Assembly: GCA_965153355.1 (NCBI GenBank)
Contig: OZ231126.1
Location: forward strand, 10,540,001 to 10,604,000
Origin: Flaccisagitta enflata
Lineage: Eukaryota
Reading direction: 5' to 3'
Length of the DNA: 64,000 nucleotides
Shown piece by piece: positions 6,485 to 33,376 of this stretch. The first letter of the stretch is position 1. Each line of letters begins with the position of its first letter. The notes under the pieces are model-generated. The model had not been told where the DNA came from. It did no database searches and saw nothing but the letters and a program-made list of their open reading frames with translations. A program made the position numbers and the translations under genes.

Positions 6485-11647
<5,163 letters not shown>

Positions 11648-11935: not shown

Positions 11936-14900
11936 ACATACACTGAAACAATGGACTCTAGTCTGAGCTTAGATACTGTAGACTAGCATTAAGGGTCAAG
12001 GGTCGCATGTTTAAAACAAAAAGACAACATTTTCTAGGCTTACAGAGAATCAAGTATCCAGTATCCAGTATCCAGTATCCAGTATCCAGTATCCAGTATC
12101 TGCGCCACCATCTTTAATGAATTAGTTTAAGCCAGTGAAAGGTCATTCATTTCATTCTCTTTGATCTTACTGAAGCATAAAACAGGCCTAATTAACATGT
12201 CCGTGTCACCTAAAAGTTTTTTGTCACACCAGTATATGAAATAAAAAAAGTCTTATCTAATAAGAAAGAATCAGGTATCCAGTATCCAGTATCTATCATC
12301 CAGTATCTGCATCACCACATACACTCAAACAATGGACTCTAGTCTGAGCTTAGATACTGTAGACTAGCATTAAGGGTCAAGGGTCGCATGTTTTAAACAA
12401 AAAGACAACATTTTCTAGGCTTACAGAGAATCAAGTATCCAGTATCCAGTATCCAGTATCCAGTATCCAGTATCCAGTATCCAGTATCTGCGCCACCATC
12501 TTTGATGAATTAGTTTAAACCAGTAAAAGGTCATTCATTTCATTGTCTATGATCTTACTGAAGCATAAAACAGGCCTAATTAACATGTCCATGTCACCTA
12601 AAAATTTTTTGTCACACCATTATATGAAATAAAAAAAGTCTTATCTAATAAGAGAGAATCAGGTATCCAGTATCCAGTATCCAGTATCCAGTATCTGCAT
12701 CACCACATACACTCAAACAATGGACTCTAGTCTGAGCTTAGATACTGTAGACTAGCATTAAGGGTCAAGGGTCGCATGTTTAAAACAAAAAGACAACAGT
12801 TTCTAGGCTTACAGAGAATCAAGTATCCAGTATCCAGTTTCCAGTATCCAGTATCCAGTATCCAGTATCCAGTATCCAGTATCCAGTATCCAGTATCTGC
12901 GCCACCATCTTTAATGAATTAGTTTAAGCCAGTAAAAGGTCATTCATTTCATTCTCTTTGATCTTACTGAAGCATAAAACAGGCCTAATTAACATGTCCG
13001 TGTCACCTAAAAGTTTTTTGTCACACCATTATATGAAATAAAAAAAGCCTTATCTAATAAGAGAGAATCAGGTATCCAGTATCCAGTATCCAGTATCCAG
13101 TATCCAGTATCTGCATCACCACATACACTCAAACAATGGACTAGTCTGCTTGAGCTAGATACTGTAGACTAGCATTAAAGGTCAAGGGTCGCATGTTTAA
13201 AACAAAAAGACAACATTTTCTAGGCTTACAGAGAATCAAGTATCCAGTATCCAGTATCCAGTATCCAGTATCCAGTATCCAGTATCCAGTATCCAGTATC
13301 TGCGCCACCATCTTTAATGAATTAGTTTAAGCCAGTAAAAGGTCATTCATTTCATTCTCTTTGATCTTACTGAAGCATAAAACAGGCCTAATTAACATGT
13401 CCGTGTCACCTAAAAGTTTTTTGTCGCACCATTATATGAAATAAAAAAAGTCTTATCTAATAAGAGCGAATCAGGTATCCAGTAACCAGTATCCAGTATC
13501 CAGTATCTGCATCACAACATACACTCAAACAATGGACTCTAGTCTGAGCTTAGATACTGTAGACTAGCATTAAGGGTCAAGGGTCGCATGTTTGAAACAT
13601 TTTCTAGGCTTACAGAGAATCAAGTATCCAGTATCCAGTATCCAGTATCCAGTATCCAGTATCCAGTATCCAGTATCTGCGCCACCATCTTTGATGAATT
13701 AGTTTAAACCAGTAAAAGGTCATTCATTTCATTCTCTATGATCTTACTGAAGCATAAAACAGGCCTAATTAACATGTCCGTGTCACCTAAAAGTTTTTTG
13801 TCACACCATTATATGAAATAAAAAAAGTCTTATCTAATAAGAGAGAATCAGGTATCCAGTATCCAGTATCCAGTATCCAGTATCTGCATCACCACATACA
13901 CTCAAACAATGGACTCTAGTCTGAGCTTAGATACTGTAGACTAGCATTAAGGGTCAAGGGTCGCATGTTTAAAACAAAAAGACAACATTTTCTAGGCTTA
14001 CAGAGAATCAAGTATCCAGTATCCAGTATCCAGTATCCAGTATCCAGTATCCAGTATCCAGTATCCAGTATCCAGTATCCAGTATCTGCGCCACCATCTT
14101 TAATGAATTAGTTTAAGCCAGTAAAAGGTCATTCATTTCATTCTCTTTGATCTTACTGAAGCATAAAACAGGCCTAATTAACATGTCCGTGTCACCTAAA
14201 AGTTTTTTGTCACACCATTATATGAAATTAAAAAAGTCTTATCTAATAAGAGAGAATCAGGTATCCAGTATCCAGTATCCAGTATCCAGTATCCAGTATC
14301 TGCATCACCACATACACTCAAACAATGGACTCTAGTCTGAGCTTAGATACTGTAGACTAGCATTAAAGGTCAAGGGTCGCATGTTTAAAACAAAAAGACA
14401 ACATTTTCTAGGCTTACAGAGAATCAAGTATCCAGTATCCAGTATCCAGTATCCAGTATCCAGTATCCAGTATCCAGTATCTGCGCCACCATCTTTAATG
14501 AATTAGTTTAAGCCAGTAAAAGGTCATTCATTTCATTCTCTTTGATCTTACTGAAGCATAAAACAGGCCTAATTAACATGTCCGTGTCACCTAAAAGTTT
14601 TTTGTCGCACCATTATATGAAATAAAAAAAGTCTTATCTAATAAGAGCGAATCAGGTATCCAGTAACCAGTATCCAGTATCCAGTATCTGCATCACAACA
14701 TACACTCAAACAATGGACTCTAGTCTGAGCTTAGATACTGTAGACTAGCATTAAGGGTCAAGGGTCGCATGTTCGAAACATTTTCTAGGCTTACAGAGAA
14801 TCAAGTATCCAGTATCCAGTATCCAGTATCCAGTATCCAGTATCCAGTATCCAGTATCTGCGCCACCATCTTTGATGAATTAGTTTAAACCAGTAAAAGG

Positions 14901-17900
14901 TCATTCATTTCATTCTCTATGATCTTACTGAAGCATAAAACAGGCCTAATTAACATGTCCGTGTCACCTAAAAGTTTTTTGTCACACCATTATATGAAAT
15001 AAAAAAAGTCTTATCTAATAAGAGAGAATCAGGTATCCAGTATCCAGTATCCAGTATCCAGTATCTGCATCACCACATACACTCAAACAATGGACTCTAG
15101 TCTGAGCTTAGATACTGTAGACTAGCATTAAGGGTCAAGGGTGGCATGTTTAAAACAAAAAGACAACAGTTTCTAGGCTTACAGAGAATCAAGTATCCAG
15201 TATCCAGTTTCCAGTATCCAGTATCCAGTATCCAGTATCCAGTATCCAGTATCCAGTATCCAGTATCTGCGCCACCATCTTTAATGAATTAGTTTAAGCC
15301 AGTAAAAGGTCATTCATTTCATTCTCTTTGATCTTACTGAAGCATAAAACAGGCCTAATTAACATGTCCGTGTCACCTAAAAGTTTTTTGTCACACCATT
15401 ATATGAAATAAAAAAAGTCTTATCTAATAAGAGAGAATCAGGTATCCAGTATCCAGTATCCAGTATCCAGTATCTGCATCACCACATACACTCAAACAAT
15501 GGACTCTAGTCTGAGCTTAGATACTGTAGACTAGCATTAAGGGTCAAGGGTCGCATGTTTAAAACAAAAAGACAACATTTTCTAGGCTTACAGAGAATCA
15601 AGTATCCAGTATCCAGTATCCAGTATCCAGTATCCAGTATCCAGTATCTGCGCCACCATCTTTAATGAATTAGTTTAAGCCAGTAAAAGGTCATTCATTT
15701 CATTCTCTTTGATCTTACTGAAGCATAAAACAGGCCTAATTAACATGTCCGTGTCACCTAAAAGTTTTTTGTCGCACCATTATATGAAATAAAAAAAGTC
15801 TTATCTAATAAGAGCGAATCAGGTATCCAGTAACCAGTATCCAGTATCCAGTATCTGCATCACAACATACACTCAAACAATGGACTCTAGTCTGAGCTTA
15901 GATACTGTAGACTAGCATTAAGGGTCAAGGGTCGCATGTTTGAAACATTTTCTAGGCTTACAGAGAATCAAGTATCCAGTATCCAGTATCCAGTATCCAG
16001 TATCCAGTATCCAGTATCCAGTATCTGCGCCACCATCTTTGATGAATTAGTTTAAACCAGTAAAAGGTCATTCATTTCATTCTCTATGATCTTACTGAAG
16101 CATAAAACAGGCCTAATTAACATGTCCGTGTCACCTCAAAGTTTTTTGTCACACCATTATATGAAATAAAAAAAGTCTTATCTAATAAGAGAGAATCAGG
16201 TATCCAGTATCCAGTATCCAGTATCCAGTATCTGCATCACCACATACACTCAAATAATGGACTCTAGTCTGAGCTTAGATACTGTAGACTAGCATTAAGG
16301 GTCAAGGGTCGCATGTTTAAAACAAAAAGACAACATTTTCTAGGCTTACAGAGAATCAAGTATCCAGTATCCAGTATCCAGTATCCAGTATCCAGTATCC
16401 AGTATCTGCGCCACCATCTTTAATGAATTAGTTTAAGCCAGTAAAAGGTCATTCATTTCATTCTCTTTGATCTTACTGTAGCATAAAACAGGCCTAATTA
16501 ACATGTCCGTGTCACCTAAAAGTTTTTTGTCACACCATTATATGAAATAAAAAAGTCTTATCTAATAAAAGAGAATCAGGTATCCAGTATCCAGTATCCA
16601 GTATCCAGTATCTGCATCACCACATACACTCAAACAATGGACTCTAGTCTGAGCTTAGATACTGTAGACTAGCATTAAGGGTCAAGGGTGGCATGTTTAA
16701 AACAAAAAGACAACATTTTCTAGGCTTACAGAGAATCAAGTATCCAGTATCCAGTATCCAGTATCCAGTATCCAGTATCCAGTATCCAGTATCCAGTATC
16801 CAGTATCTGCGCCACCATCTTTAATGAATTAGTTTAAGCCAGTAAAAGGTCATTCATTTCATTCTCTATGATCTTACTGAAGCATAAAACAGGCCTAATT
16901 AACATGTCCGTGTCACCTAAAAGTTTTTTGTCACACCATTATATGAAATAAAAAAAGTCTTATCTAATAAGAGAGAATCAGGTATCCAGTATCCAGTATC
17001 CAGTATCCAGTATCTGCATCACCACATACACTCAAACAATGGACTCTAGTCTGAGCTTAGATACTGTAGACCTGCATTAAGGGTCAAGGGTCGCATGTTT
17101 AAAACAAAAATACAACATTTTCTAGGCTTACAGAGAATCAAGTATCCAGTATCCAGTATCCAGTATCCAGTATCCAGTATCCATTATCTGCGCCACCATC
17201 TTTGATGAATTAGTTTAAACTAGTAAAAGGTCATTCATTTCATTCTCTATGATCTTACTGAAGCATAAAACAGGCCTAATCCACTAATATGTCCGTAAGT
17301 TACCTAAAAGTTTTTTGTCACACCATATATGAAATAAAAAAGTCTTATCTAATAAGAGAGAATCAGGTATCCAGTATCCAGTATCCAGTGTCCAGTATCT
17401 GCATCACCACATACACTCAAACAATGGACTCTAGTCTGAGCTTAGATACTGTAGACTAGCATTAAGGGTCAAGGGTCGCATGTTTAAAACAAAAAGACAA
17501 CATTTTCTAGGCTTACAGAGAATCAAGTATCCAGTATCCAGTATCCAGTATCCAGTATCCAGTATCTGCGCCACCATCTTTAATGAATTAGTTTAAGCCA
17601 GTAAATGGTCATTCATTTCATTCTCTTTGATCTTACTGAAGCATAAAACAGGCCTAATTAACATGTCCGTGTCACCTAAAAGTTTTTTGTCACACCATTA
17701 TATGAAATAAAAAAAGTCTTATCTAATAAGAGAGAATCAGGTATCCAGTATCCAGTATCCAGTATCTGCATCACCACATACACTCAAACAATGGACTCTA
17801 GTCTGAGCTTAGATACTGTAGACTAGCATTAAGGGTCAAGGGTCGCATGTTTAAAACAAAAAGACAACATTTTCTAGGCTTACAGAGTATCAAGTATCCA

Positions 17901-19091
17901 GTATCCAGTATCCAGTATCCAGTATCCAGTATCCAGTATCCAGTATCTGCGCCACCATCTTTGATGAATTAGTTTAAACCAGTAAAAGGTCATTCATTTC
18001 ATTCTCTATGATCTTACTGAAGCATAAAACAGGCCTAATTAATATGTTTTGTAAGTCAATTTAAAAAGTTCTTGCTTCATCATTATATGAAATAAAAAAA
18101 AGTCGTATCTAATAAGAGAGAATCAGGTATCTAGTGTATCTAGTATCCAGTATCCAGTATCTGCATCACCACATACACTCAAACAATGGGACTCTAGTTC
18201 GAGCTAGATACGTAGACTAGCATTAAGGTGGTCAAGGCTGATGTTTAAAACAAAAAGACAAATATTTTCTAGGCTTACAGGAGAATCACATCTATATCTG
18301 TGCATCCAGTATCCAGTATCCAGTATCCAGTATCCAGTATCTGCACCACCATCTTTAATGAATTAGTTTAAGCCAGTGAAAGGTCATTCATTTCACTCTC
18401 TTTGATCTTACTGAAGCATAAAACAGGCCTAATTAACATGTCCTGTCACTCAAATGTTTTTTGTCACACCATTATAGGAAATAAAAAAGTCTTATCTAAC
18501 AAGAGAATCAGGTATCCAGTATCCGCATCTTAGTATCCAGTATCTGCATCACCACACACACTCAAACAATGGACTCTAGTCTGGAGCTAGATACTGTAGA
18601 CCAGCATTAAGGGTCAAGGGTCGCATGTTTAAAACAAAAAGACAACATTTTTAAGGTTTACAGAGAATCAAGTATCCAGTATGCAGTATCCAGTATCCAG
18701 TATCCAGTATCCAGTATCCAGTATCTGCGCCACCATCTTTGATGAATTAGTTTAAACCAGTAAAAGGTCATTCATTTCATTGTCTATGATCTTACTGAAG
18801 CATAAAACAGGCCTAATTAACATGTCCATGTCACCTAAAAGTTTTTTGTCACACCATTATATGAAATAAAAAAAATCTTATCTAATAAGAGAGAATCAGG
18901 TATCCAGTATCAAGTATCCAGTATCCAGTATCTGCATCACCACATACACTCAAACAATGGACTCTAGTCTGAGCTTAGATACTGTAGACTCAGCATTAAG
19001 GGTCAAGGGTGGCATGTTTAAAACAAAAGACAAATAGTTTCTAGGCTTTACAGAGGAATTAAGTATCCAGTATCCAGTTTCAGTATCCAGT
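11936..19091 (+). repeat. Satellite array (continuation), indel-rich after ~17280
   Basis: Same monomer and orientation as 1-5244. It ends inside a heptamer tract at the junction with the retroelement integrase. Confidence 0.98.
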
Positions 19092-20560
19092 AATTGAACG
19101 AAGTGGCAATGATGCACAGATCTCCTGGCCTTAACAGTCGCGTGAAGTCGGTGGGGGAAGTTCGCTTGGTCCTCTTCAGATGGTTTCTCACGTCGTGAAA
19201 ACGGACCAACTCACCTACCACTCTTGCTGCTTTCACCGTCGGCGTTGAGTCAACAGGTTGGTCACCAAGGTGGTGTAAGAAGTTGGTCGGTGCTTTAGCG
19301 AAATGTACATTTTTAGGCGAATAGGCGCCATTGCCTAAAATTGTAGAATTTGTGGAATTGTACACAAACGCACTTTCCGCGACCAAGCGTGTAAATGGCC
19401 AGCTAGGGTTGTCTGTCTGTAGGGAACTATATATCCTCATATAGGTGTTGATGGCGCGTTCGACTTTTGCTTGGGATCTAGAGGTGTAGGGTAAGCCGTG
19501 GCTTATTTCAACCCCCTGCTCTTCCAAAAATCTGTGTGATTTGCTTCCAGGCTTGGCGATGGCGTTGTCCATTTGGAGGCGGCGTGGAAAGCCGCAAAGT
19601 TTATCGCGGGTGTCAATCAAGGCTGCGAGGATTTCTTCGTCTGCACAAGAACTGATGCATTTGCTTATCAAGAAACGGCTGAACTCGTCGACATATAGGT
19701 AAACAAATTTGCTGTTTAAGCCGCCTGAAATTTGACATACATCGATTTCTGCGCTTTCATTAGGCTCAAGGGCCAATTTATCTCCTGTTTTTGTAGACAT
19801 GCCTCTTTTGTGTTTATTCAACTGGCAAGTGGGACACTGAACTAAAAGCTTGTCCAGTAATTTTCGTAGTGAAAATGAATAGTACAGCTTTATTAGTCAC
19901 ATAAATGTCCGTCTTTTGCCCGCGTGTCTGTTTGGTGATGAAATTCCTGAGTGCGTGTCCTTTATCAACGACTTCATTTTGTCCTCGCCTACTACTATTA
20001 GAGCTGTTAATGTGCCGTCAGCGCCATGCCAAAGCCTCATCAATATTCCATCCTCATTTATTTTGAAAAGCGAGCGGTTTCTTAGGAAAGATTGTACCGA
20101 TTTATCTTTTGCTAAGGCTTCCGTCTTTTCTATCTTTTTGTTGTTAATGAGGATGCTTTTGATTTCTTCAATTATGGGATCATTTTGAAGAGTCTGTACA
20201 TTATCTAGTTTTCTCCCTTTGAATCTTTCTAGCTGAAAATTAGCTACTAGATCGTAATCTAGCTCGGGATCGTCGGTCGGTTCGTCGTATCCTTGATTGA
20301 CTAGTTCATCGTTGAGAGTATAGGCTGCTATCATTTCCGCGGCTTTGCCATTTTTGAGTTTTTCCTCCGGTGCTACTATCTCTAAAACGCGGCCTAATTC
20401 CTTCGCCTCCGTGCGTGCTCTTTGCTTATCCTCCACTACTACCCTTGAAGGATCAATGGCGTGAGCCATTTCTTGGTTGCGTTTGCGAGTGAAGAATTCG
20501 TTGGCTTCTTGCGCGTATTTTTCGGAAAAAAGATTGCACCATGGGATGTTTAGCCGTTTG
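19092..20560 (-). pseudogene. pol: linker and integrase (HHCC zinc domain + DDE core), one in-frame stop, C-terminus truncated
   Basis: THSGISSPNRHAG...CPTCQ zinc motif with a TGA at 19897-19899. Core motifs EIDVCQ / VDEFSRF / LQMDN / SQAKVERA. ORFs 19897..20469 and 19048..19821 are in the same frame. Confidence 0.88.
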
Positions 20561-20618
20561 GGGTGTAAGTGATTTTACCAAAAAACGTTCGTATTTACAT
20601 ACAGGTTTTTTGTCTGTT

Positions 20619-21771
20619 CTAGTTCGCGTTAAAAAAAAAAATCGCTGATGTTGAGCCTTGTTTCGATGAACAATAGTTTAAAGTTATATTTTGTAGTCTC
20701 ATCACCCGACGTACGAGATCTTTCGGAATTAAGTCCAGCGAACTCCAGCGTCTCACTGTAGTACTGTCCGTGATGCTGAAGAAAGATCGCCCGCTCAGGT
20801 AATAATCGTATTTGCATGTGGTTTCTTCGAGGGCGCACAATTCGAGGATCCATACCGGGTATGATGACCAGGTATCCTCGATGCGCCTCAACCAGCATGC
20901 CACAATATGCAAATAACGTTTCGACGGATCTAATTTGGAGCTTGGTAGTGGATACAAGGCTTGTGTTATTATGCCGGAAATGCTAACGGAACTCGCGTCC
21001 GTCCATATTAGTGTGAGCGCGTCGGGATCGTTCGACATCGTGCGGATTGCGCCGACCGTGTCATAGAGAAGATAATCTTTAAGCGCTTCAAATTCCTTTT
21101 TGTCGCCTGGCTGCGGATTGAACCGCACCTTGGGGTGGCCAAGGCGTCGTAAGTGCGCCAACTTTTGAGACAAAAGGGGAGCCACGGGTATAAAGTAGCT
21201 GAAAAATGCTGCTTTACTCACGGCTTCTTTCTTGTCGCGCGGAAACTCCATTTCCTTTATTTTCTTCTTCTTTTCGTCGGACAAACTTTTCGCACCTTGG
21301 GATAGTTGGTATCCTAAAACGCGTATGTCCAGACGACATAAATCCACCTTCTTTGGGCTCAAAAGTAGAGTGTACTTAGAGCAGATGGCAAGGGCTTTCG
21401 CCAAATCTTCCCTTACGTGGGTCTTTTGGTCTTTCGAGGCCACCGTTATGTCGTCGACGAAGCAAAACATTCTGGGATGTTGTCTGCTTATCCGTTCCAT
21501 ATAATATTGGACCCAGCTGGAACTGGAATGGAAACCCATCGGCAAACGCTTGAGCATAAATATGCGAGAGAGAGATGGACATTGGAACGCCAAGTAACGC
21601 CGTGCGCTGTTACTATCAACTAAGAATTGATAATACATCGCAACGGCGTCAAGGTTAGTAAATACACAGTAATTTTCCGACGAAACCGAACGAAAAAATT
21701 CATCAGCGATAGGGACCGGATATTGAACGTGACAAGTGCGCTGGTTCAAAAATCTGCAATCGATTACGAAC
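20619..21771 (-). CDS. pol exon 2: reverse transcriptase and RNase H (frameshifted at its 3' end)
   Basis: RT motifs FVIDCRFLN, LDAVAMYYQF, LPMG, CFVDDI, VLGY. RNase H motifs WTDASS, ELCAL, ITDS. The frame shifts at A/T homopolymers near 20630-20692, with the continuation KYNFKLLFIETRLNISDF in ORF 20629..20898. Confidence 0.9.
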
Positions 21772-21884
21772 CTAAAAAGAGAAATAGTCATGGTTTGGCT
21801 TAGTCTAGGGTTAGAAAAGATTATGTTTCTTAAGTTTTTGACCCTAAAAATATCTAAAAATAACCTAATAAGTCATGTCTTAAC
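21772..21884 (-). other. Putative 113-nt spliceosomal intron within the RT domain
   Basis: CAG|GTTAAG donor, AT-rich interior, CTAAC branch-like motif, TTTCTCTTTTTAG|G acceptor. Removal joins KEKSR to FVIDCRFLN in frame. Confidence 0.75.
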
Positions 21885-24139
21885 CTGGATTTCTCCTTCA
21901 TTCGCTTTTCGCTCGCGATCCATCGATGCTCGACGACAATCCCGACAGGTGATATAAATGCGTCGGATGTGTCGTGGAGCTCTTCGATGATTCCCCTTTC
22001 AAGCATGACTTTCAAGTGTTCTTTTAGATGGCGCAATTTTGTCGCGTTCATTCTTCTCGGGGGTATTCTTGGGAATGGTGCTGAATTTTTCTGTAAATTA
22101 ATTTTTATTGGCGCCATCTCCACTCCCCTGTGGAACATGTCAGGTCGAGATTCGTTCATCATGACATGACGAAAAGACCAAAGAAGATCGCTTACTTCGT
22201 TCTTTAATTCGCCATCGACTGCCGACATGTCGAACATTTTTAAGTATTCCGCTCGATCAGGCCAAAAATCGCATCTGTCGCTGCGTTTTCTCTCTTTGTC
22301 GACGTCTACGGGTGTATCGTCAATACCTATATCGGGTTCCGGTGTCGAAAAATCTAAGTCGATAGCTATGCCGTCCTTTAAGCATTTTTGGAATTTTTCG
22401 TTGTCGACTTTATTGATATCGACTAATTCTGAAAAATTTACCGGTTTTCCGTCCGAATTTGGTCCATTTTGGTTGTTCGTGGGCAATTCCAATTTATGCG
22501 TATTTTGAAAATTGTTACTGCCCTTTGAAAGTTGTATTGGTATGTTTGTTTGCTTTTTCTGTTTCGGAATATGGCTTAAAATCGTGTTTTGGTCCGTCGG
22601 TTCAGGAGTTATGGCCGATTTTTGAATTTTGCCTAATTTGCATAATTCGGGGGTACCACTTTTTTGATCCAAATTAAGTTTTGATGGTTGGATATTGTCC
22701 GTTGTGTCTTCCCGAGTCATATTAGGTGCTTGTTTTTGTTCTCCCCTCCTCGGATCCAAAGATATTGGCTTTTGAAGATTTTTACTATCAATTTTCGGTT
22801 GCCCGGATTTGGTGCGATTCACCCCAGGGTGCGAATTTTCTGCTCCTTCCGCGAGCGTCGAAATTTCGGAGCAAGTAAGATTTTTCATTGATTTTATGGT
22901 TTCTTTCAGTTGGTCGCCGTCATAGGCCATTACAGTGAACCTATTTGCTTTATCCGCGCACCGTTTTATTTCGCCCACGGGTGTACCTTTTCCAAAGCAG
23001 ACCTCGAAGCAGACTTCGTTACTGGATTTGTTTTCTATCGTCACTAGAAAATGTCCGTTTGATTCGTACATTATCATACTTGGTATGTATAATTCGTTCG
23101 TCTCTTGTTCGTCGTCAAACATGGAAAGGAACACGTATTTCTCTTTTCTGTTCAAATCATAGTCCGTCACTACTTCTATGTCTGCAACGCTATATGGTTT
23201 GACGCTCTGTTTGACTTTTGATCGCACCCAGTTTGGGCGTCTATCGTTAATTTTCCTTTCTTTGCGGCATTTCCCTTCATACATTCTAGAATGTAACTCT
23301 TTAATAGCTTCTTCCGGTGAACAAGCTGTCTTTAAGGGGTATTTGTCTATCCACAAAATCTCCGTTTTTGTGTTTAAGGAAACATTCAATCTAGAATTGC
23401 GGAAAATGTCAATACCGATTATTGTATATTCCGTCTTACATATGAAAAACTTCATGATAGCTACTACTGATCCGAAATGTAATCGCAAGGTACTAGTCTC
23501 AGTAATAGTCTGCGTTGATCCGTTGTCGAAGCTACGGATTTTCATAGGTGTGGATAGTTTCTCTATCTTCCCTAATCTGCTCGTCACGTGATCCGTTATG
23601 CTAATGTCCGCGGCTGAATCGGCGAAGCACACCACCTCGTCATTACCTATCTTTCCTGCCAAATAATATTTCCCTCGCTTCTTTCTAAATGCGGAGATTG
23701 TTTTAGTCACTTTTGGATTGTATGATGTCAAAAGTTTGATTCTATTTGGAGAATTTTTATTTGAGTATTTTGGCAGGACTTGCGAATCAATTATTGAATT
23801 GTCACATTGAATTGGAGCATTTGAATAGGTTTGGTTATCATCACAGGCGGTAGCATAACAATTCGATTGGTGTTCAGGACATGTAAAAGTGTCATTAATC
23901 ACAGATGAGCGGTTACATTGAGCAAATTGATCACAATTGGTTTCATGAGATACAACAGTAGAATTGAGATTCGAAACAATGGGTGTACAAGCGTTTTGTT
24001 TGGGGCTGCCATTAGAATTTTGCTTATTTTTAGGGATAGGTAAAATATGAGATTCAATCACACAATTTATAGATTTTGATTCAATTTTCAGATCTTTCAA
24101 TTGTCTTTCGATATTTTCAGCCCCGTTTGAGTTGTCTAG
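21885..24139 (-). CDS. pol exon 1: aspartic protease, spacer and RT N-terminus
   Basis: CFADSAADIS (variant of D[ST]GA) and IIGIDIF protease motifs. MLERGIIEE..SPVGIVV RT-start motifs. In frame with gag across a single TGA. Confidence 0.82.
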
Positions 24140-25531
24140 TCATTTAGATTTTCCAGCTTCTCTCAAGATTTTCATTCTCTCGGCTTTGTCCTTGGGCATT
24201 TTGCGACATAATGGCGCAAAATGCCTAGAATCGTTACGGGTAAATACTTTTTTACAGAAGACACAAGTATCAGGACAAAACTTAAAAAAATCTTCGTATA
24301 AATGAGAAGTCCGGAGGCAGCCCAGGCATCCGCGTAGTCCTGCCGCGTTGGCAGCCTTTGCTGCCTCGTTGAGAGATGTGCTGTGGTTGAACGAGGCTAT
24401 TCCTTTGCCTCTAGCGCCTGGCCTGGATGGCCCTGCCGTCCCTCGGCCCCTGGTAGCGCCCCCGCGGCCCCCGATACGGCCCCTTGACGTAGTGGGGTTG
24501 CCGGGGTTGCCTCGGCGGGCTGCGGCCCCTGCCTGTACCCCTCTGCCTCTTGATGTTGACGGGTGTTTGGCTCCTCTCCCTCTGCCGGCGGAGGAATTCC
24601 TGTTTAAAGTCGCGATCGATTGGCGGTTGAATCCTCTTCCTCTTCCGGTCTTTTTTGTGGATTGGCGTTGCGATTGGTTTGCGAAACTCCGCTCTCCTTC
24701 CATCGCTATATTTTGCACCGTACGACTGGCATAGTTCCTGACGGAAAGAAGGGAACGGTCAGGTCCGTAGTCGTGCATCCGTACATATTTACGCAACACG
24801 GGGGAGAGTATTCCGTCAATAAAAGCTTCTACTGAGTCGTCAATCGGTCGGCCCGTCTCTTCGTGGACATCTATATGCGCCTCATAATAGGCCTCGATAG
24901 TCTGCCCCGGGAGCTGTTTGTGGGTTCTGGCCATCATTAATGCGTGGCTTTTCACATTGGGCCACTGGCGGACAATGAATTCGTTAATAAACGCTCAGAA
25001 ACTTGTGAAGGTCTCTTGAATAGTTGTCATTTCTTTTAAGACATGGTAAAATTTCTGAGTTTTGCTCATAAAGACCGCCACAATGGTATACATTGTGACG
25101 TCCATAGTGATGCTAGCCTTCACAGTTTCGATAAAATTTCTCACTGTCCGCTTAAAGTAAAAAATCTCGTCTTGGCCTGATGGAACATAATCAAATTTGT
25201 ATTTGGAGGCGATTTTCTCCACAAATTTGTAATGTTCCATGTTGGCCGTTCCCCCAAAAACAGATCCCCCTTTACGGTGTTGGATTATGTATCCGTCAGG
25301 GTCCATTTCGTCAATGCTCGGGTACATGGGGACCCTCTCGGTTCCGAGCTCGTGTCTTACCGGGTCAAGTTCGCTGTCCGGCATGCCGAGGACGGCTGCG
25401 TCCGCCCGATAGAGTACGGAGATGCCCGCTGAATCGTCGCGGTCGTCGCGTAAATCCCGTACACTTTCGACCTCGGCGTCGTCGTCGGCTTTCCATGTCG
25501 TTAGTGTCGCTTGGTTCCAACCCTTTATCTT
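24140..25531 (-). pseudogene. Gag core: capsid-like region, RGG-rich tract and two Cys/His knuckle-like motifs; one in-frame TGA at 24995-24997
   Basis: KQLPGQTIEAYY...FIDGI...LRKYV capsid-type motif. CLGC-x4-H-x7-C and CVFC-x10-H-x4-C. ORFs 24995..25384 and 24140..24955 are in the same frame. Confidence 0.78.
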
Positions 25532-28500
25532 TTAGTCGATCGGGATGGCTTTCACTTTTGAACCGAGTCGCTCTCTGACGGGCAATTTTTGTTGATGCTG
25601 TTGCGGAAGTGGTGATCGCTGACGAGGCTTTGGGCTCGCCTCTCTCTTCTTCCTTTCACGCCTTTTGGGTGGGCGATCGCTGTCGTCGTCACTGTCGTCG
25701 CTGCTGTCGGACTGCTTGGCTGACGTCATTTCCTCGTCTTTGCAACTATTTTTGACCTTCGCCTTTTTATCCTTCCCCTTAGGTGAAGAATGGCTTGGGC
25801 TGCGACTCTTTGGGCGTGTTGAAGATGGTGAATTTGACGGGCGTTGATCGCGCTGACTCTCGACGGTTCGGCGTCGTTCACTGTCGCTTCTGTCGAGAGA
25901 ACTGCGTTTGCGGCCGTCGTTACTCCCGGCGCGTCTTTCCATTGACTGGTTTCCGCCCTTTTTGCCGGTCTCCGATCCGCTTCGCCTCCCGCCACTTCCG
26001 GTCGTCTCGTCATGCGGCCTAGCAGGAGGTGAGTCCGTTATTTTTCCCCACTTCTCCTCCTGTTGGCGTTGGGTGAGCCTTTCGGTGAAGTTTGTGACGA
26101 TTCTTTTGTCTCTGACGTTGGAACTGCTCGTGATGGAGTCGCTTCTGGTCCCGCTCGCCGACGCTGCACTTCTTTCCGAGGAGCTACTTCCTTTTCTTGG
26201 AGGTTTTACGCTTTTCTGCCTATCTTCGTATCTCGCTTTTCTCATCTTTGCCGTTTTTCTTTGTTCATCCTCCTTGGCCCATTCCTCCCTACGGCGTCTC
26301 CGCTCCTCCTCTTCCTTTCTATCCTCCTCGTCCCTTTTCTTCTGTTTTTCTTTTCGCTTTGCTTCGGCCTCTTGTTCTTCCCTTTTTCTTTGGTCCTCCC
26401 TGAACCATCTTTCGTCGGAGGATGATTCACTGTAAGAGGTGAGTGAGCTCGCTGGGCTGGGATGCCTTGTCTTTGAAGAAGTAGCTGGCGGATTTATTTT
26501 GGCGCCGTCTGGAGATTCCCCTCTTTTCTTGTCTTTGCCTCTTTCCGGTGAATTGAGGGTGTGGCTCTCTAATTTTCTCTGCAAGCCGTCGCATCTTTCG
26601 TTCCATGCTTCTTTCTCGCGAGCGGCGTTGATCGCCTTTTGTTCATCTGTCATCTCCTCGTCCTCTTCTCCGCTGTCCTGAGTGAAAGCGCGGATATGAA
26701 GGACGTCGCCGCTTGTTTTATTTTTCATCTCCTCCTCCCCAATTGTGCAGTCCACCACTTCCGTGGTGTCGGCCTCTGTTGCTGATGAGAGGATTTTAGC
26801 TGATGTGGCCGGTTGCTTGTCGACTTGTTTCGCGCTGCCCGCGTCGGAATCGCGCGTGGTATCCGCTGCGGTTGCTTCTTTGTCTTCAAATTGCTTTGTC
26901 TTCTTGTCGACGCCACCCTTGACCCCTCTCACTTCCGACTTTTCTCCATCTTTGATGAGGCTTTTTCCGGAAGCTGAGCGTTCCATATGGGGCTCGTCGG
27001 GTTCCATTCCTATGGTGTTCCTCATGTAGGATACCAAATCGCTGACTTCGTCTCTATCCATGATTTTCTTGGAGTGGATTTGCTCCAGCATACTTGCAAA
27101 ATTTTGGATGCAAACCCTCATGCTGTTGATTATATGGATTTGATCATCGTAGGTGCCTTTGGCTTCCCCGAGTTTCTTCTCGAGTCTTTCGCGCTTTTGT
27201 TTCTCCTCGTTGAGGAGTTTTCCTTGACCAGCCATTGCTTCTTGCAGCTGCTTCGCTTCCTCTTTTGCTTTTTTGGCGTTCTTTTTGTCGCGATCCATCC
27301 ATACAGCGGCCTTTTCCCTCTGCTTTTCGAGTGCGGATTTTAAAGCTACTTGTCTTTCCTGCCGCTCCTTCTCGTTTTGGGGTTTGCCCATTACTTCCAA
27401 GAGCTTCCCCGTGATCCTTTGGTACTCCAGGTAATGCGCCTGGAATTCTTTCAAGAGGGTTCTGTATGGAGCAGAATTCTTAACAAATTCTGCCTGTACG
27501 TCGATGTGTTGTTTATGCAGATCTCTCATCTTCACCGCACCTGTTAGCTGATTTCTCAACCTGGATAACTCGTTTCTGTCCACTTCTGACTCCTGCTGCT
27601 TCAGTTCCAACTCCTTCCTTTTCTCTTCCATCTTGTCGACGTGCTCCTTCACTTCCTCTTCCAATTGAATTTTTAGGTTCAGGTAAGCCTTGTTAACGGA
27701 TTCGAAATTGGCGGATTGAGTTCGATTCCTCTCTTTCAGTTTTTGGAACTCTACGTCTTGGAGTCTGAATGCCTCGAGTTCGTTCTCTTTTTCCTCTAGG
27801 CTGTGGTTCAGCTTCTGAATTTCCGCCTTTTGTGCGTCTCTTTCCTTTACGGTGGTGACGAATTCTTTCGAGGTTTCTTCCTCTCTCCTCGGTTTTAATT
27901 CCAGATCGCGGGTCGTTCTATATTCCTCCAGCAAATCTCGTCGGAGTTCATCCATCTGGGTTTGCATCTGTACCATTTTTGCTTTGAGTGTATCATTTTC
28001 GGATGCAATTTTGGATGCCGCGGCGTCTGCATCCCTCATGGATTTATCCATTTCAGCATGGATTCTTTCGATTTCTTTTTGATGCTCTTCCTTGTCATGC
28101 AAGTGATTCTGCTGGGACTCGATGAGGGCCAATTCCAGCTCCTTCCTCGTTGGTGGCGCGTTGCCGCTGCTTAACACAATGATGTCTTCGCTGTTGCTGT
28201 TGAGTTCTGCTGCGGCGGCGTCGTTGTTGGGGGTGTTGTCGTTGACCTCCTCATTATGGCCCGTCGTAGCGTTATCCGGCTGCTCATGGTCGCCGGCTGT
28301 GTCCACACTGGATTCTGATGAGGATGAGTGTGCTCTGCATGAAGGGTTGTCCATGGCGAGGTCGATTACGTCCAACATTCTCGCCAAACAGTTGATGGAG
28401 AACATGTAGAATGTTTTTACCTCCTCCAAATTCCATGCTTTCGCCCTACTTGCCTCATTCATGCCGAGTTGTTCGCAGATGGTTTTGTGAGAGGCCGTTC

Positions 28501-29968
28501 TTACTCTACATCCCCCGCAAAGCGTAGCGAAGACAATGTTGTAGTGTATCGCAGCGCCTTTCGCCAAACGCGTTCTCGTCGTGATGAGTGCCCTCAAGGT
28601 GATTTTTATCGGGATAGTTTGATCCTTCAGCCAGTCGTCCTGAGTAGAGCGAAGGACTGACTCAGTCATTCCGTCCTCGGTGATGTAGTTGTGTGAATCT
28701 GGATTGCTGTCATCCTCGCGTCGTAGATCAGCCCAGACTGTCGATTTCCCGGCTAACGCGTAAAATGCCGGTGAAGAAACGGTTAAGTTGCTATCCATCG
28801 TGAGGGCTTTGGAAACTAGGGTCTGTCTGCCTTCGAGTAGGATCGGTTGAGTGGTGACTTGAACCATCGTCACCCACGACAACTTCCCTCTCCAGTAATC
28901 GAAGGAAGTGTTGTATCGAGTGATGACGCTCTCCGCATCCTCGTTGTTGTCATTCTCTTTGGGTGATTGACCGCCTTCATTTGTCGCGCTGGCGGTTTCG
29001 TCGATGACCAGTTTATTCTCGCCGTCTTCGTCGGTGGTAGATGATGATGGTGTTGAAGCGGCCGCTGCTGCTGCTGCTGCTGTTGCTGCTGCTGCCTCCG
29101 CCGCTTCTTCCTCCTTTTTCTTCTTGCTGGCTTCCTCTACCTCCTTTTGCATCCTACTTTGCTCCTCTGCCTCTTTTGCTTTTCTCTCCTGTGCCGCTTT
29201 GGAGGCTTCCTGCTCCCTTTCCTTTCTCCTTTCCTCCGCCGCTTTTTCCGCCTGATCATGATTCTTATGATGCATCTCGATTCGACTCTCTGCTTCCTCC
29301 GCTTCTTTTTCCCCTCTCAGACGCTTTGGATTTTCCTCGTCGCGGATGGTGGCGGTGCCTGTCGCGGTTTCCGTCGCCTCTGCGCCGTGAGCTTCGTCGT
29401 TCGACGCCTGAGAGTCGACGTAGAAGTTGCAAGGTGGAGGTGTGTTAAGGCACATATCGTGAGGAGGTAGGTTGGATTGCTGTGTGGCGTCAGTTAACTG
29501 CCTCCACGTCTGATCTTTGTCCAATTCATCCCATGCTTTCATGATGTTTCCCTGCTCGTCATCGTCAGGATCGTCTGCAGTTATCGGCGAGACGCTTGCC
29601 AAGAGGAGTAGATCTTGCTCTTTGTCGCGGACGCGAAAACCACTTATCATCGGGTCGTTATCGCTGTCCGCTATTTGGATGGTCAAAACGTCGGCCCTTT
29701 GATTTTTGGGATGATCGTTGGAGTCGGCGGAACAACCCGCCGCGTCGGCGGAAGATGCTGTGGAGCATGATGGACCGCCCGTGGAGTCGGCGGAATGCCT
29801 CGTCGAGTCGGCGGTAACCGTTATAACCTCGATGTCGGCGGCCGAATTGGAGGCATTTTTCGTCGATTTTTGCCGGGTTCTTGACGCCGATGGTTTTGAC
29901 GCCGTTTCTTGCCTCGGCGCCGCCCCTTGCGGACTGGGGTGCCGATTAGCTTTTTTATTTCGGACCAT
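25532..29968 (-). CDS. Large coiled-coil/low-complexity ORF, in frame with gag (probable N-terminal Gag extension)
   Basis: Open for ~1480 codons from the first true ATG (29968, MVRNKK). It has an E/K/Q-rich heptad region and an S/R-rich tail. After the TAA at 25532-25534 the frame stays open for 49 codons into the gag ORF. Confidence 0.8.
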   Translation of the reverse strand: MVRNKKANRHPSPQGAAPRQETASKPSASRTRQKSTKNASNSAADIEVITVTADSTRHSADSTGGPSCSTASSADAAGCSADSNDHPKNQRADVLTIQIADSDNDPMISGFRVRDKEQDLLLLASVSPITADDPDDDEQGNIMKAWDELDKDQTWRQLTDATQQSNLPPHDMCLNTPPPCNFYVDSQASNDEAHGAEATETATGTATIRDEENPKRLRGEKEAEEAESRIEMHHKNHDQAEKAAEERRKEREQEASKAAQERKAKEAEEQSRMQKEVEEASKKKKEEEAAEAAAATAAAAAAAASTPSSSTTDEDGENKLVIDETASATNEGGQSPKENDNNEDAESVITRYNTSFDYWRGKLSWVTMVQVTTQPILLEGRQTLVSKALTMDSNLTVSSPAFYALAGKSTVWADLRREDDSNPDSHNYITEDGMTESVLRSTQDDWLKDQTIPIKITLRALITTRTRLAKGAAIHYNIVFATLCGGCRVRTASHKTICEQLGMNEASRAKAWNLEEVKTFYMFSINCLARMLDVIDLAMDNPSCRAHSSSSESSVDTAGDHEQPDNATTGHNEEVNDNTPNNDAAAAELNSNSEDIIVLSSGNAPPTRKELELALIESQQNHLHDKEEHQKEIERIHAEMDKSMRDADAAASKIASENDTLKAKMVQMQTQMDELRRDLLEEYRTTRDLELKPRREEETSKEFVTTVKERDAQKAEIQKLNHSLEEKENELEAFRLQDVEFQKLKERNRTQSANFESVNKAYLNLKIQLEEEVKEHVDKMEEKRKELELKQQESEVDRNELSRLRNQLTGAVKMRDLHKQHIDVQAEFVKNSAPYRTLLKEFQAHYLEYQRITGKLLEVMGKPQNEKERQERQVALKSALEKQREKAAVWMDRDKKNAKKAKEEAKQLQEAMAGQGKLLNEEKQKRERLEKKLGEAKGTYDDQIHIINSMRVCIQNFASMLEQIHSKKIMDRDEVSDLVSYMRNTIGMEPDEPHMERSASGKSLIKDGEKSEVRGVKGGVDKKTKQFEDKEATAADTTRDSDAGSAKQVDKQPATSAKILSSATEADTTEVVDCTIGEEEMKNKTSGDVLHIRAFTQDSGEEDEEMTDEQKAINAAREKEAWNERCDGLQRKLESHTLNSPERGKDKKRGESPDGAKINPPATSSKTRHPSPASSLTSYSESSSDERWFREDQRKREEQEAEAKRKEKQKKRDEEDRKEEEERRRRREEWAKEDEQRKTAKMRKARYEDRQKSVKPPRKGSSSSERSAASASGTRSDSITSSSNVRDKRIVTNFTERLTQRQQEEKWGKITDSPPARPHDETTGSGGRRSGSETGKKGGNQSMERRAGSNDGRKRSSLDRSDSERRRTVESQRDQRPSNSPSSTRPKSRSPSHSSPKGKDKKAKVKNSCKDEEMTSAKQSDSSDDSDDDSDRPPKRRERKKREASPKPRQRSPLPQQHQQKLPVRERLGSKVKAIPID

Positions 29969-30569
29969 TATTGTGAGTGTCTCTTTTGATTTTTGTCTCT
30001 TAGTAGTGTTGGTAAATGCTCCCAAGTTTATATTTTTCTAATTTTGTGATTCTTTCAGAAAGAAACGGAAATTGAATAATTTCAATATCTGGAATAAAAG
30101 AATCATGGGAAAATAGAATTTTAAGCGAAACTTGAATCAATCAACATAGCTGCAACAAAATCTCATAAGTATACGAGAGACAATTTTAGACACAATTGAT
30201 CACAAATTGAGGTCAGTGTTTTTGTTGAATACTTTTTTGTCCAAAATACATGATTACTTTCTTTTTAATGCCAATCTTAAAGACTCTAGAAATTCTAGTT
30301 AGGTCAATCATGATTTCCAATTATGATTTCTATTCATTCTTTTATCTTTAATAATTAATCATTCTCATAAGTAATCATGTATTTTGAGTGTTTCTAACCC
30401 TGAGCTGTTTTCTGCATTTCTGTTTACCATAACATGATGGAAAATATTTATCAAGTGATGGATGAGAGTCACATTTTATACTTAGAACACAACTTCAGCC
30501 GGTTTATTTTATCATGTTATACCATGGGTGTGTACCCTTCAAATATTTTATCATCATGCTTTGTTTGTG

Positions 30570-30752
30570 GTAATTATCACAGTTTTGATGCTAATTATCA
30601 CGGTTTTGTTCAGGATTATCACAGTTCTAATTCAGGATTATCACAGCTCTATAACAGGCTTCTTTCAGCTCTATGGCAGGGTTATCACAGCTCTATCACA
30701 GGGTTGTAACTTTTGTAAGGTCTTATCACAGGTTACTCAAAGGTTACCATAG
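30570..30752. repeat. Degenerate ~21-22-bp tandem repeat with TTATCACAG core
   Basis: About 8 units of the form (GGA/TAA)TTATCACAG(T/C)T... Confidence 0.65.
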
Positions 30753-31108
30753 CGCGTGTGTATCGACTGTAATGCTGTTGAGTACCATTACCAAAATTTC
30801 ATGTACTCCTCCTTTTATCTTTTTGTTTGCTAAAAGTTAACTAATTTAACTACGCATGACACAAACAAGGGCCATCAGCTATGCTGAAATTTTTGACCAT
30901 GAATCAATAGTGATTTTGAGCATTTAACAGTTCAATGAGGATAAACGGTTTGATTCGCTATTTTGAGGTTTGCTATTGCGAGTATTGCTACTGTGAGATT
31001 CTTTTTAGTTAAGCGCGTTTCAATGATTGTTCTTTAGTGATTTTCTATTTTTACTAACGCTTCGGGCGTCGTAGGGTGATTTCAACCCATTGATGAATGT
31101 TTTTGTCT

Positions 31109-32716
31109 CTAACCCAACACAGGGTCGAAGGAAAGCGCGTCCCCGAAGATATTGTCGTACATCAGCCGCACACGTGACTGCGCCTGATGATGTTCTTCGT
31201 CTTCGTCCTCGTCGTCGGATTTCCTCGCCCAATCTTTCGGAAGGTATTTTTCCTTTGAGATTTTGGCGACTCTTTCCGCGCGTTTGACGTAATCCTCGTG
31301 GTTTTGCTTTGATTCGTCGACAATTTGTTGCTTTATCATTTCCAGGGTTGGTTCGTGGATCCATGCGTCCTCCCATTCTTTGTCGAGTTCCAGGTTGATG
31401 TTGAAACGGCGGCGGTGGACGCCTTCAATGCCCATTTTCATTGCCGCCTGCATGAACGTCTCATCCTTGGATCTCATCCGGGTTTGGGCGATGGCCTCCT
31501 TTCCTAATTCTTCGAGGATTTCGGTGTAAACATCGTTTTGGATTTCGGCCCTTTCCATGTCCAATTTAGGTATTCCTAATTCATCGAGCGGGTTTAGTTT
31601 CCATGATTTCTTGAAGTTTTTGTTTTTATGCCGTTTGATGAGTCTGTCCATATCCTCATTTTTGATTTTCAACTTCTTCAATTCCGCTTCTTTCGCTCTC
31701 AACTTTTCCTCCAGGATGCGGATTTGGACTTCTTTGTCGCTTGCTGCCGGTGGAATCGCCTTTGAATACTTTGGAACCGCGCCGGTGGGATTTCCGCTGG
31801 CGCCCGATGGTCCAGCGCCGCTCATGACACCGGCGGCGGGCATAGGTGCGTCCAGCGCCGGTAATGAGGGTCCTTTTTGGATGATGGCTGGATCCGGGAG
31901 ACTTTGCTGCGCGGCCTCGTCGGGCGCCGTCGCCGTCGCCGTCGCCGGATTGTAGAATATTTCCTCCAAGCTTGGCAGTTCGTCATCGCTGGTGTCGACG
32001 GCGCCCAATTCGGCTTGGGGTTTGGCCTCGGCGTTGTTTGTGCAGATGGATGGTTCGGCAGCGGCAATGACCACCTTCTCGACGATTGTGTTGTCGTCAT
32101 CGTCGTCGTCGTCGTCATCCCCGCAATTCACGACTGGCGTGTCGTCGTCGTCGGAAGGTAAGAGTTGATCAAAAATGATTTGACCCGCGTTGCTTTGATC
32201 ATATTTGATGCTTTGGAAAAATGAGCGTGCATCCTCGATGTTGGGGATGTATGCGGCCTTTATGAAAGTCTGGTTGACGTCGTTACATGACACCACCTTT
32301 ATGATTGAACCATGTATGTCGTTGTTGATGAGTTTGTTTTCCAATTCTTTGATCTCGGCCTCATCGACTATCAAACTTGATTCACAGGTGTCTTCACGGA
32401 TATTTTCCTCCCATGAATCTGGTGTCTGTTGACGCTCTTCCTCCTCCGTGGACGAATCAGCCTCCTCCAAGTCGGGATTGACGTCGATGGAACAAATTCG
32501 CATCGCCCCTTGCAATTCCTCTTCATCTGAGTCGCTAGGTGAGTTTGATGGTGCTGCGCGTCCATCTTCGTCGTGTTCCATTTGTTGTCTGGTCACGAAT
32601 CTGAAGATTTGCTCTAAGGCATAACGGATTCTTTGTTGATGGAGGAATTCGTCTGATGTGCATTCGTTCCTCTTCTTAGGAACCATGGTGAAGTTGTTGT
32701 AGACTGAAGACAACAT
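31109..32716 (-). CDS. Hypothetical 535-aa acidic protein with C-terminal coiled coil; probable accessory ORF of the retroelement
   Basis: Long intronless non-repetitive ORF. A second ATG in accATGG context lies at 32686. No domain recognised. Confidence 0.7.
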   Translation of the reverse strand: MLSSVYNNFTMVPKKRNECTSDEFLHQQRIRYALEQIFRFVTRQQMEHDEDGRAAPSNSPSDSDEEELQGAMRICSIDVNPDLEEADSSTEEEERQQTPDSWEENIREDTCESSLIVDEAEIKELENKLINNDIHGSIIKVVSCNDVNQTFIKAAYIPNIEDARSFFQSIKYDQSNAGQIIFDQLLPSDDDDTPVVNCGDDDDDDDDDNTIVEKVVIAAAEPSICTNNAEAKPQAELGAVDTSDDELPSLEEIFYNPATATATAPDEAAQQSLPDPAIIQKGPSLPALDAPMPAAGVMSGAGPSGASGNPTGAVPKYSKAIPPAASDKEVQIRILEEKLRAKEAELKKLKIKNEDMDRLIKRHKNKNFKKSWKLNPLDELGIPKLDMERAEIQNDVYTEILEELGKEAIAQTRMRSKDETFMQAAMKMGIEGVHRRRFNINLELDKEWEDAWIHEPTLEMIKQQIVDESKQNHEDYVKRAERVAKISKEKYLPKDWARKSDDEDEDEEHHQAQSRVRLMYDNIFGDALSFDPVLG

Positions 32717-33001
32717 TTCGCAACTGAAGGGTTCGCAAGCGAAGACTAAAAAGTAGAATCCTCACGCGTGTACACTATTCAACTGACTGACGCAGAGTTA
32801 CGTTATCCTCATGTGTTTACACTATCTAACTGATTGTAAGACAGACAGACAGACAGACACAGATTGACGGACAGACAGACAGACTGACAAAGCTTCTCAA
32901 GGTCGCAAGTATGTAACAAAAAGCCTTCAACACTATTTGATGATTAAAGCCTTATATCCAGTTTCCGTTACGAAAAAAAAGAACAAATGAATTGTAATAA
33001 G

Positions 33002-33208: not shown

Positions 33209-33376
33209 CTAAGTTTCATCAAAATTTGAACAGTATTTCAAGATTTCATCAGTATTTCATTGGATGTGAATGAATTAAACGTCCAAAACATTAGTTGAAA
33301 TACAAACACAGAATACAAAACACAAAACAATTAAAGCAGCGACCACACTTTTTGACCTAATGCTTGTTTAAGTCCT

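Follow-up and report, generated by a model that had tools for sequence, protein, structure and literature searches.

A decayed gypsy-type retrotransposon copy with a giant Gag, a stop before pol and an intron-like segment in its reverse transcriptase

How could a retroelement produce its enzymes when a stop codon closes its Gag frame and a further interruption divides its reverse transcriptase (RT)? This question was raised by a unit on the minus strand of a 64,000-nucleotide stretch of DNA (the window), in which ORF-X, an AT-rich spacer, a long Gag frame and a TGA-CTAG stop were followed by protease (PR), RT, RNase H and integrase (IN) (Table 1). The stop-free frames of 1501 codons, and of 535 codons for ORF-X, were far beyond chance. 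On balance, we consider it likely that the window holds one decayed, 3′-truncated copy of a many-copy Ty3/gypsy-type retrotransposon, from a family with a giant Gag, a conserved Gag stop, putative UGA readthrough, a putative spliceosomal intron of 113 nt and ORF-X as an accessory gene. The first-pass annotation had placed all of the features in Table 1 that it listed correctly on the minus strand, but the breakage of the copy was overlooked. The damage consisted of two extra stops in the Gag frame, a change of frame accompanied by two stops in the stretch from RNase H to IN, a stop in IN, and truncation by a satellite array at 19093.

Table 1. Positions of the element's parts and of the adjoining satellite array in the window
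Feature	Position	Strand	Remarks
Satellite array, ~380-bp units	11936..19092		Adjoins and truncates the element; satellite similarity ends at 19092
Integrase, core 19483-19767, cut off at 19093	19093..20547	-	In-frame TGA 19897-19899
RNase H-IN linker, broken: frame change and two in-frame TAA	20548..20690	-	
RT and RNase H	20691..21771	-	RVT_1 E 3e-16, RT_RNaseH E 9e-8; Ty3 RT 4ol8 E 3.7e-12
113-nt GT..AG intron-like segment	21772..21884	-	GC 0.28, stops in all three frames, flanking 5-nt direct repeat
First part of pol: 147-codon open linker, protease (DSAAD at 23606-23620), N-terminal part of RT	21885..24139	-	
Gag stop TGA, then CTAG; pol continues in the same frame	24136..24142	-	
Gag core: helical region, RG-rich tract, Cys/His motif at 24302-24328	24143..25531	-	
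In-frame TAA, private to the window's copy	25532..25534	-	Sense codon in P0208 and in X5 and X1 contigs; P0225 alignment crosses the site
Gag N-terminal extension: giant, charged, coiled-coil-like, low complexity	25535..29968	-	Collinear with P0225
AT-rich non-coding spacer	29969..31108	-	GC 0.33 (over 30038-31108)
ORF-X, 535 codons and TAG	31109..32716	-	ATG at 32716, stop 31109-31111; depth matches the rest of the element

The repeated unit, its ends and ORF-X

The DNA depth of run X5, which may be the sample from which the window was assembled, lay between 792 and 2287 in all but one of the 26 bins that cover 19093-32976, the exception being the bin over a low-complexity stretch of ORF-X (31909-32442), which reached 12275. 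The depth was even from ORF-X through the spacer, Gag and pol to IN. With this equal depth, ORF-X, the spacer, Gag and pol form a single repeated unit, and at the level of the family this bore out the earlier claim of a single unit. Nine of the 12 listed indels between copies fell in the spacer, and 13 of the 32 listed differences were synonymous, numbers too small and mixed to demonstrate selection.

The element broke off abruptly at 19093, inside IN, against the satellite array, and the Pol proteins of relatives ran on for 116-172 further conserved residues past this cut. On the other side, a different and hyperabundant repeat started at 33002, with a flank depth of ~1e6 in X5. No pair of direct repeats able to be LTRs was found in 19001-48600, no PBS-like site was recognised, and neither tRNA genes nor Rfam families were found within the window. 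These results would fit a family that truly lacks LTRs and has another kind of end. Such a family is improbable, since any 3′ LTR was lost with the cut inside IN, the 5′ end may also have been cut at the hyperabundant repeat, and an IN that carries H2C2 and rve domains, like that of relatives, is typical of LTR elements. The term “LTR-less” in the first-pass annotation was right in that no repeat pair was found, but the truncation explains this at least in part, so a copy cut inside IN at 19093 cannot be used to judge it.

The 535-codon frame of ORF-X and the AT-rich gap of ~1.1 kb next to it were both as first described. ORF-X was without relatives or family (no Pfam family and no Atlas match), no convincing in-frame splice with a good acceptor was found to join ORF-X to Gag, and the element has no defined 5′ end. 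All three points speak for ORF-X being foreign to the element, either as part of a neighbouring element or gene or, with the 1.1-kb spacer as an LTR, as the tail of an upstream tandem copy. We give little weight to this explanation because the X5 depth of ORF-X (1537-1767 outside the low-complexity bin) equalled that of gag and pol, the depth of the spacer was lower (792-1255) and not doubled as that of an LTR would be, and ORF-X lay on the same strand as gag with a similar GC content (0.50 vs 0.51). The spacer itself contained six GTGATAA motifs at 30574-30729, spaced by 21-22 nt. As an accessory gene of the element, ORF-X might help to handle intron-containing RNA in the way that CERV does for Cer1, although this role is a guess.

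The giant Gag and its stop

The long frame opened with the ATG at 29968 and closed with the TGA at 24140-24142, a span of exactly 1942 codons. The length given earlier for the Gag-like frame was thus exact and the giant size proved to be conserved, but the frame of the window's copy was interrupted by two extra stops, the TAA in Table 1 and a private TGA at 24995-24997 in the Gag core. The Gag protein P0208, which was 99% identical, ran through both extra stops and ended at the same Gag end, and P0225 from a related family was an uninterrupted Gag of 1967 aa, collinear with the frame in the window. P0225 came from a cluster listing, and a targeted search for longer Gag proteins found none. These alignments showed that the family has a single Gag protein of ~1,940-1,970 residues, in which the N-terminal domain is conserved and a long region is charged. 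The conserved block at 28361-28954 of the extension contained a C-x2-C-x6-H-x3-C motif and was 32% identical to P0225 (E 3e-34; 0 of 200 shuffles reached the score), a homology that appeared only without composition correction, block by block, and in tblastn; BLASTP of the whole giant region with composition correction gave no match. The identity of the protein as Gag rests on its position and on a weak Cys/His motif, for which zf-CCHC matched three of five sequences with a best E of 0.095. No match was found between Gag and PDB sequences, and both the AlphaFold model (pLDDT 35) and a second structure model (pLDDT 33) were unusable for fold comparison.

The end of Gag lay at the aligned position in all four Gag relatives, and the TGA-CTAG stop with pol in frame behind it was found as originally described. 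A UGA-CUAG context is reported to favour readthrough in a preprint (bioRxiv 10.1101/2021.04.18.440353). The Gag stop matched this context, pol followed it directly with 147 open codons, and the frame stayed open to the TAG at 21854-21856. No stable RNA fold was found downstream of the stop (z -0.21). Judging from the context and the frame, Pol may be made by readthrough of the UGA. Three of the in-frame stops were TGA, as would be expected if the genetic code were changed or if every site underwent programmed recoding. Such a reading has almost no probability, since the TGA in the Gag core occupied a residue that was invariant in 4/4 relatives and was a sense codon in P0208, TAA stops were present too, and the stop at the Gag end was kept as a stop in all of the relatives. 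A changed genetic code was rejected on the alignments of the Gag relatives together with the sense codon of P0208, which speak against it at the Gag site.

Pol and the 113-nt segment in RT

Pfam searches of the window matched RVT_1, RT_RNaseH and rve, and these matches, the domains of the relatives and collinear tblastn alignments confirmed the order PR-RT-RNase H-IN. The relatives carried gag-asp_proteas/RVP, and one of them (P0017) also had DSAAD. Among Ty3 structures, RT-RNase H matched 7q5b (E 1.4e-11) in addition to 4ol8 (E 3.7e-12), and outside its own clade identity dropped to ~25%. The domains had been annotated as lying in frame; their order held, but IN was in a different frame from RT-RNase H, with the break near 20690 and two TAA just after it. 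In this linker, small indels separated the X5 and X1 contigs from the window at three listed places. A 1463-nt X1 contig covered 1465 nt of the window across the break, and a net difference of this length is what a continuous pol would require in that copy. The layout of the broken stretch, like the two stops in the Gag frame, was not common to the other copies seen.

The boundaries of the 113-nt GT-AG segment that splits RT were exact. Excision of 21884-21772 joined the two frames and restored an RT motif that aligned gap-free to the relatives, and after the segment RT-RNase H was open for 360 codons. The segment had a GC content of 0.28 vs 0.42 for pol, its 3′ end was pyrimidine-rich and its donor was GTTAAG, which is weak by the usual animal donor consensus; the window offers no host intron for comparison. 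Four of the five letters of the flanking repeat were the usual letters of splice junctions. In the genomic reads of X5, a contig of 475 nt (depth 1065) spanned the segment without a gap, and none of the 15 joints that were listed skipped it (127 more were unlisted). The Pol proteins of relatives were continuous at this site in 8/8. In the polyA run X23, of which ~6% was read, no reads fell on 25 of the 30 bins and none at the segment, and the metatranscriptome run X16 gave seven short, low-depth contigs on the element, none of them across the segment, which may be DNA carry-over.

These features suggest that the segment may be a spliceosomal intron that stays in the genomic RNA and is spliced out of some mRNAs. 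By analogy with plant Ogre, Gag and Gag-PR would come from unspliced RNA and full Gag-Pol from spliced RNA, the three products proposed in the first-pass annotation. The segment could also be an inactivating insertion, an introner-like or other mobile piece, which entered a founder copy and was never spliced; the family would then have spread with intact relatives as helpers or through duplication of DNA in satellite-rich heterochromatin. The 5-nt direct repeat resembles a target-site duplication, and the segment shares with gained introners a short AT-rich insert, splice sites at the ends and a short flanking repeat; according to PMC9860276, introners with 3-9-bp duplications are mostly from aquatic organisms. 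The weak donor, the lack of the segment in every relative, the satellite surroundings and the lack of expression in X23 also point to an insertion. Against this stand the exact GT..AG ends and the splice-junction letters of the repeat, and, unlike introners, the segment lacked terminal inverted repeats and occurred only once in the window. In addition, RT-RNase H stayed open beyond the segment, other copies appeared to keep pol continuous through the linker, and the segment-free form was absent among the listed joints. With these points on both sides, we regard an insertion as rather unlikely, and the putative intron is the reading followed below.

Likeness to known elements and meaning

The order PR-RT-RNase H-IN, and the Integrase_H2C2 and rve domains of the relatives, are those of Ty3/Metaviridae, whereas the Gag is ~5 times as large as usual, ORF-X and the intron-like segment come in addition, and LTRs were not seen in the truncated copy. 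Ogre, of the Tat lineage of plant Ty3/gypsy elements, is described in PMC9289625 (citing Neumann 2003) as very large, with an extra ORF upstream of gag and an intron between PR and RT that must be spliced for full Pol. The element in the window shares the upstream extra ORF, the great size and a putative intron between the PR and RT parts. It differs from Ogre in its host, apparently a marine animal, in the location of the intron-like segment in the fingers region of RT and its length of only 113 nt, in the giant Gag, and in the stop that must also be passed in gag-pol. The analogy with Ogre made in the first-pass annotation is apt for the way of working, and we read the element as a Ty3/gypsy-type variant convergent with plant Ogre.

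Splicing sets the Gag:Pol ratio via a separate Pol or Gag mRNA in foamy viruses and Ty1/copia elements. Here too, putative splicing would govern how much structural and enzymatic protein is made, but it would do so by repairing the frame inside RT. The Cer1 LTR retrotransposon of C. elegans must export an intron-containing genomic RNA and encodes the accessory protein CERV for this export, according to PMC10309623. Cer1 is thus likewise an animal element, with an accessory protein for intron-containing RNA such as ORF-X may possibly be, but CERV is made from a spliced mRNA and not from an upstream ORF. A limited literature search, which is no proof of absence, turned up no gypsy-type element of an animal whose RT contains an intron.

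Within the two protein libraries that were searched, the clade of the element appeared only on ENA metagenome contigs, with P0225 encoded on one of 13.7 kb and P0165 on one of 22 kb; no related loci were found in the metagenome_contigs and viral_contigs scans. Tentatively, and with less than even confidence, we propose an undescribed gypsy-type clade of marine animals in which a Gag of ~1,950 residues carries a conserved zinc-knuckle-like N-terminal domain of its own. The RT intron would have been gained by one family of this clade, splicing and UGA readthrough would together set the ratio of Gag, Gag-PR and Gag-Pol in convergence with Ogre, and ORF-X would act in exporting or handling the unspliced genomic RNA.

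If the segment is not spliced, the window holds an ordinary dead copy of an unusual family. If it is spliced, the element would represent the Ogre strategy in an animal and would show that retroelements arrived independently at the same two-step control of Pol dosage in very different hosts. With its conserved giant Gag, the family poses the question of what role the 1,500-residue extension has in particle assembly or RNA handling, and the clade points to a hardly described diversity of retroelements in genomes of the zooplankton type.

Layout, copy number and classification of the element

Analysis of stop-to-stop ORFs and translations revealed a single minus-strand retroelement copy from 19093 to about 33000, whose parts are listed in the table together with the surroundings. 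The Gag-like frame had exactly the length proposed by the first-pass annotation. Its TGA was followed by CTAG, behind which the same frame stayed open for 761 more codons up to a TAG at 21854-21856, in agreement with the proposed stop with in-frame pol behind it. This stop context is one described in bioRxiv 10.1101/2021.04.18.440353 as favouring readthrough; a stable RNA fold after the Gag stop was not found. Pfam hits in the frames further downstream were RVT_1 (E 3e-16), RT_RNaseH (E 9e-8) and rve (E 4e-6); ORF-X, the long Gag frame and the protease part gave nothing significant. The protease active-site motif, usually D-S/T-G, was D-S-A here (23606-23620, minus strand). Since the intact relative P0017 has the same motif, D-S-A may be characteristic of the clade rather than a lesion. 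Within 19093-32716 the base composition changed in a step, from a GC of 0.50-0.51 across ORF-X, giant extension and Gag core to 0.42 in pol. Six of the nine GTGATAA motifs of the window lay at 30574-30729 on the sense strand of the element (minus), spaced by 21-22 nt and preceding the Gag ATG by about 600-760 nt; this array could be a set of binding sites or an internal promoter.

Features of the retroelement copy and of its surroundings in the window
Feature	Position	Strand	Details
ORF-X	ATG 32716 to TAG 31109-31111	-	535 codons
Spacer	between ORF-X and long frame	-	1.07 kb, GC 0.33
Long Gag frame	open from 30037, first ATG 29968, TGA 24140-24142	-	ATG to TGA exactly 1942 codons
113-nt segment	GT at 21884, AG at 21772	-	interrupts RT
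Satellite arrays	1-5245, 11936-19092, 48667-59530, 62207-64000		~380-bp unit, (GTATCCA)n-like core
Tandem duplication	7774-9322		724 bp; 8086-8385 and 8810-9109 99% identical
Hyperabundant repeat	33002-34578		many internal length variants
LINE-like (non-LTR) retrotransposon	39508-42285	+	upstream ORF, one stop, RT ORF (RVT_1 E 8e-26)
Palindrome	46993-47184		192 nt, near-perfect, 98% match to own reverse complement

Four runs supplied reads and contigs for mapping onto 19093-35100. In X5, a DNA run of the organism, the summed contig depth was 792-2287 in 25 of 26 bins from IN to ORF-X, with 12275 in the bin over a low-complexity stretch of ORF-X (31909-32442). The depth leaped to ~1e6 from 32977, the start of a different repeat, and many contigs carried unrelated sequence before 33002. 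The marine metagenome run X1 gave the same pattern at depths of 17-73. Because these depths match, ORF-X, spacer, Gag and pol share one copy number, as their earlier description as one unit implied. The spacer had the lowest depth of the element, not doubled, and held 9 of the 12 between-copy indels listed, as expected of a non-coding stretch other than an LTR. The window copy diverged from the run contigs by ~1-7%.

The RT-RNase H piece served as query for a full HMMER scan, which returned 25 proteins with E < 1e-30. The best matches, at 35-54% identity, were Pol proteins 1293-1759 aa long; identity fell to about 25% outside this close group (a pseudoscorpion, a fungus). The close relatives all came from ENA metagenome contigs of 4-22 kb and contained gag-asp_proteas/RVP, RVT_1, RT_RNaseH, Integrase_H2C2 and rve domains. 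The window RT matched the Ty3 structures 4ol8 (E 3.7e-12) and 7q5b, and also the caulimovirus-type enzyme 8r0s. Relatives' domains and Ty3 structure matches thus agreed with the annotated Ty3/gypsy-type order PR-RT-RNase H-IN, and the element, of Ty3/gypsy architecture, appears to sit on a deep branch that has yet to be named.

The giant Gag

Two additional in-frame stops, TAA 25532-25534 and TGA 24995-24997, lay inside the 1942-codon frame. When the 463-codon Gag core was used as query, with X in place of its TGA, four proteins were returned. P0208 was 99% identical to the core, extended 66 residues upstream across the site of the window TAA, and had a sense codon in place of the TGA, at a site that does not vary among the four relatives; contigs of two DNA runs likewise had a sense codon where the window has the TAA. 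Both extra stops are hence damage private to the window copy. The four relatives all end at one aligned Gag C-terminus, so the stop of Gag is conserved.

P0209 was 51% identical in the Gag core, and its cluster contained P0225, an uninterrupted 1967-aa protein encoded on a 13.7-kb contig. P0225 was collinear with the window frame in four tblastn blocks, one spanning the TAA. A block of ~200 residues (window 28361-28954) showed 32% identity (E 3e-34 with composition correction; score reached by none of 200 shuffles) and a common C-x2-C-x6-H-x3-C pattern, and a second block showed 56% identity over 36 residues. The annotated giant Gag-like frame is thus real, and a Gag of ~1,950 residues is common to at least two families that differ in half of the Gag core residues. 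A Pfam family for the giant Gag was not found, and two AlphaFold models were both unusable.

The 113-nt segment in RT

Excision of the segment joined a split codon, and the RT motif then aligned residue for residue with the Pol relatives P0003 and P0004. The residues bordering the site were adjacent in all eight Pol relatives, whose genes most likely lack the interruption, since each had been predicted as one ORF on its metagenome contig. The segment had a GC of 0.28, stops in all three frames and a pyrimidine-rich 3' end, with no inverted ends and no second copy within the window. A 475-nt X5 contig (depth 1065) covered 21607-22081 gap-free; being part of such a high-depth, multi-copy genomic contig, the segment is not private to the window copy. 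No joints skipping it were among the 15 listed of 142.

The donor GTTAAG, weak by the usual animal consensus, favours an unspliced insertion, a distinctly less probable reading. The five letters repeated at the two junctions would fit the target-site duplication of an introner-type insertion, as outlined in PMC9860276, and also fit ordinary splice-junction consensus. A spliced intron is the somewhat favoured prediction, and the three-product scheme of the first-pass annotation would further require readthrough of the Gag stop. The annotated GT-AG segment splitting RT was confirmed in its length and exact ends. In X23, a polyA RNA run of the organism (about 6% read), 25 of 30 bins had no reads, and the vicinity of the segment had none either. 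X16, a metatranscriptome run, yielded 7 short contigs with a depth of 3-5; they fell on ORF-X, the giant extension, the Gag core and the PR part of pol, did not cross the segment, and are possibly DNA carry-over.

Decay of the window copy and design of the family

The frame of RT-RNase H (that of 21872) did not match the frame of IN (that of 20574). By alignment to relatives, the break lies near 20690 and is followed within 120 nt by two TAA; an in-frame TGA lay within IN (19897-19899). Both DNA runs showed small indels against the window at three listed places in this stretch, and an X1 contig of 1463 nt covered 1465 window nt across the break, the net difference required for one common frame. 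The first-pass annotation had missed these lesions, as well as the two extra Gag-frame stops.

The element stopped abruptly at 19093; similarity to the adjoining satellite array extends exactly to 19092. In seven of eight Pol relatives the last alignment ended at 19111, leaving 116-172 residues unmatched; in the eighth it continued weakly into the satellite. The residues beyond the cut include a C-terminal IN region conserved among relatives (consensus). Because these residues are unmatched and satellite begins there, the copy is cut inside IN, with everything beyond, any 3' LTR included, lost. Self-comparison of 19001-48600 found no LTR-like repeat pair, which in a truncated copy carries little weight for the description as LTR-less.

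The right-side satellite arrays were opposite in orientation to the left-side ones, with complementarity reaching 100%; inverted satellite arms thus flank the 19-48 kb block. The hyperabundant repeat reached a depth of ~1e6 in X5 versus ~1.5e3 for the retroelement, and no other part had clear reads in X23. The upstream ORF of the LINE-like element resembles an endonuclease by eye; Pfam found no domain in it. The tandem duplication doubles an ORF without known family, amid a high density of microsatellites, (TGT)n, (TC)n, (AAC)n, (CTTT)n and (AG)n.

A limited literature search listed no gypsy-type element of animals whose RT contains an intron. The closest working analogue is plant Ogre (PMC9289625), and Cer1/CERV of C. 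elegans (PMC10309623) offers a model for an accessory ORF serving intron-bearing genomic RNA; speculatively, ORF-X might have such an accessory role. Although the window copy is dead and truncated, the design of the family is unusual and partly conserved.
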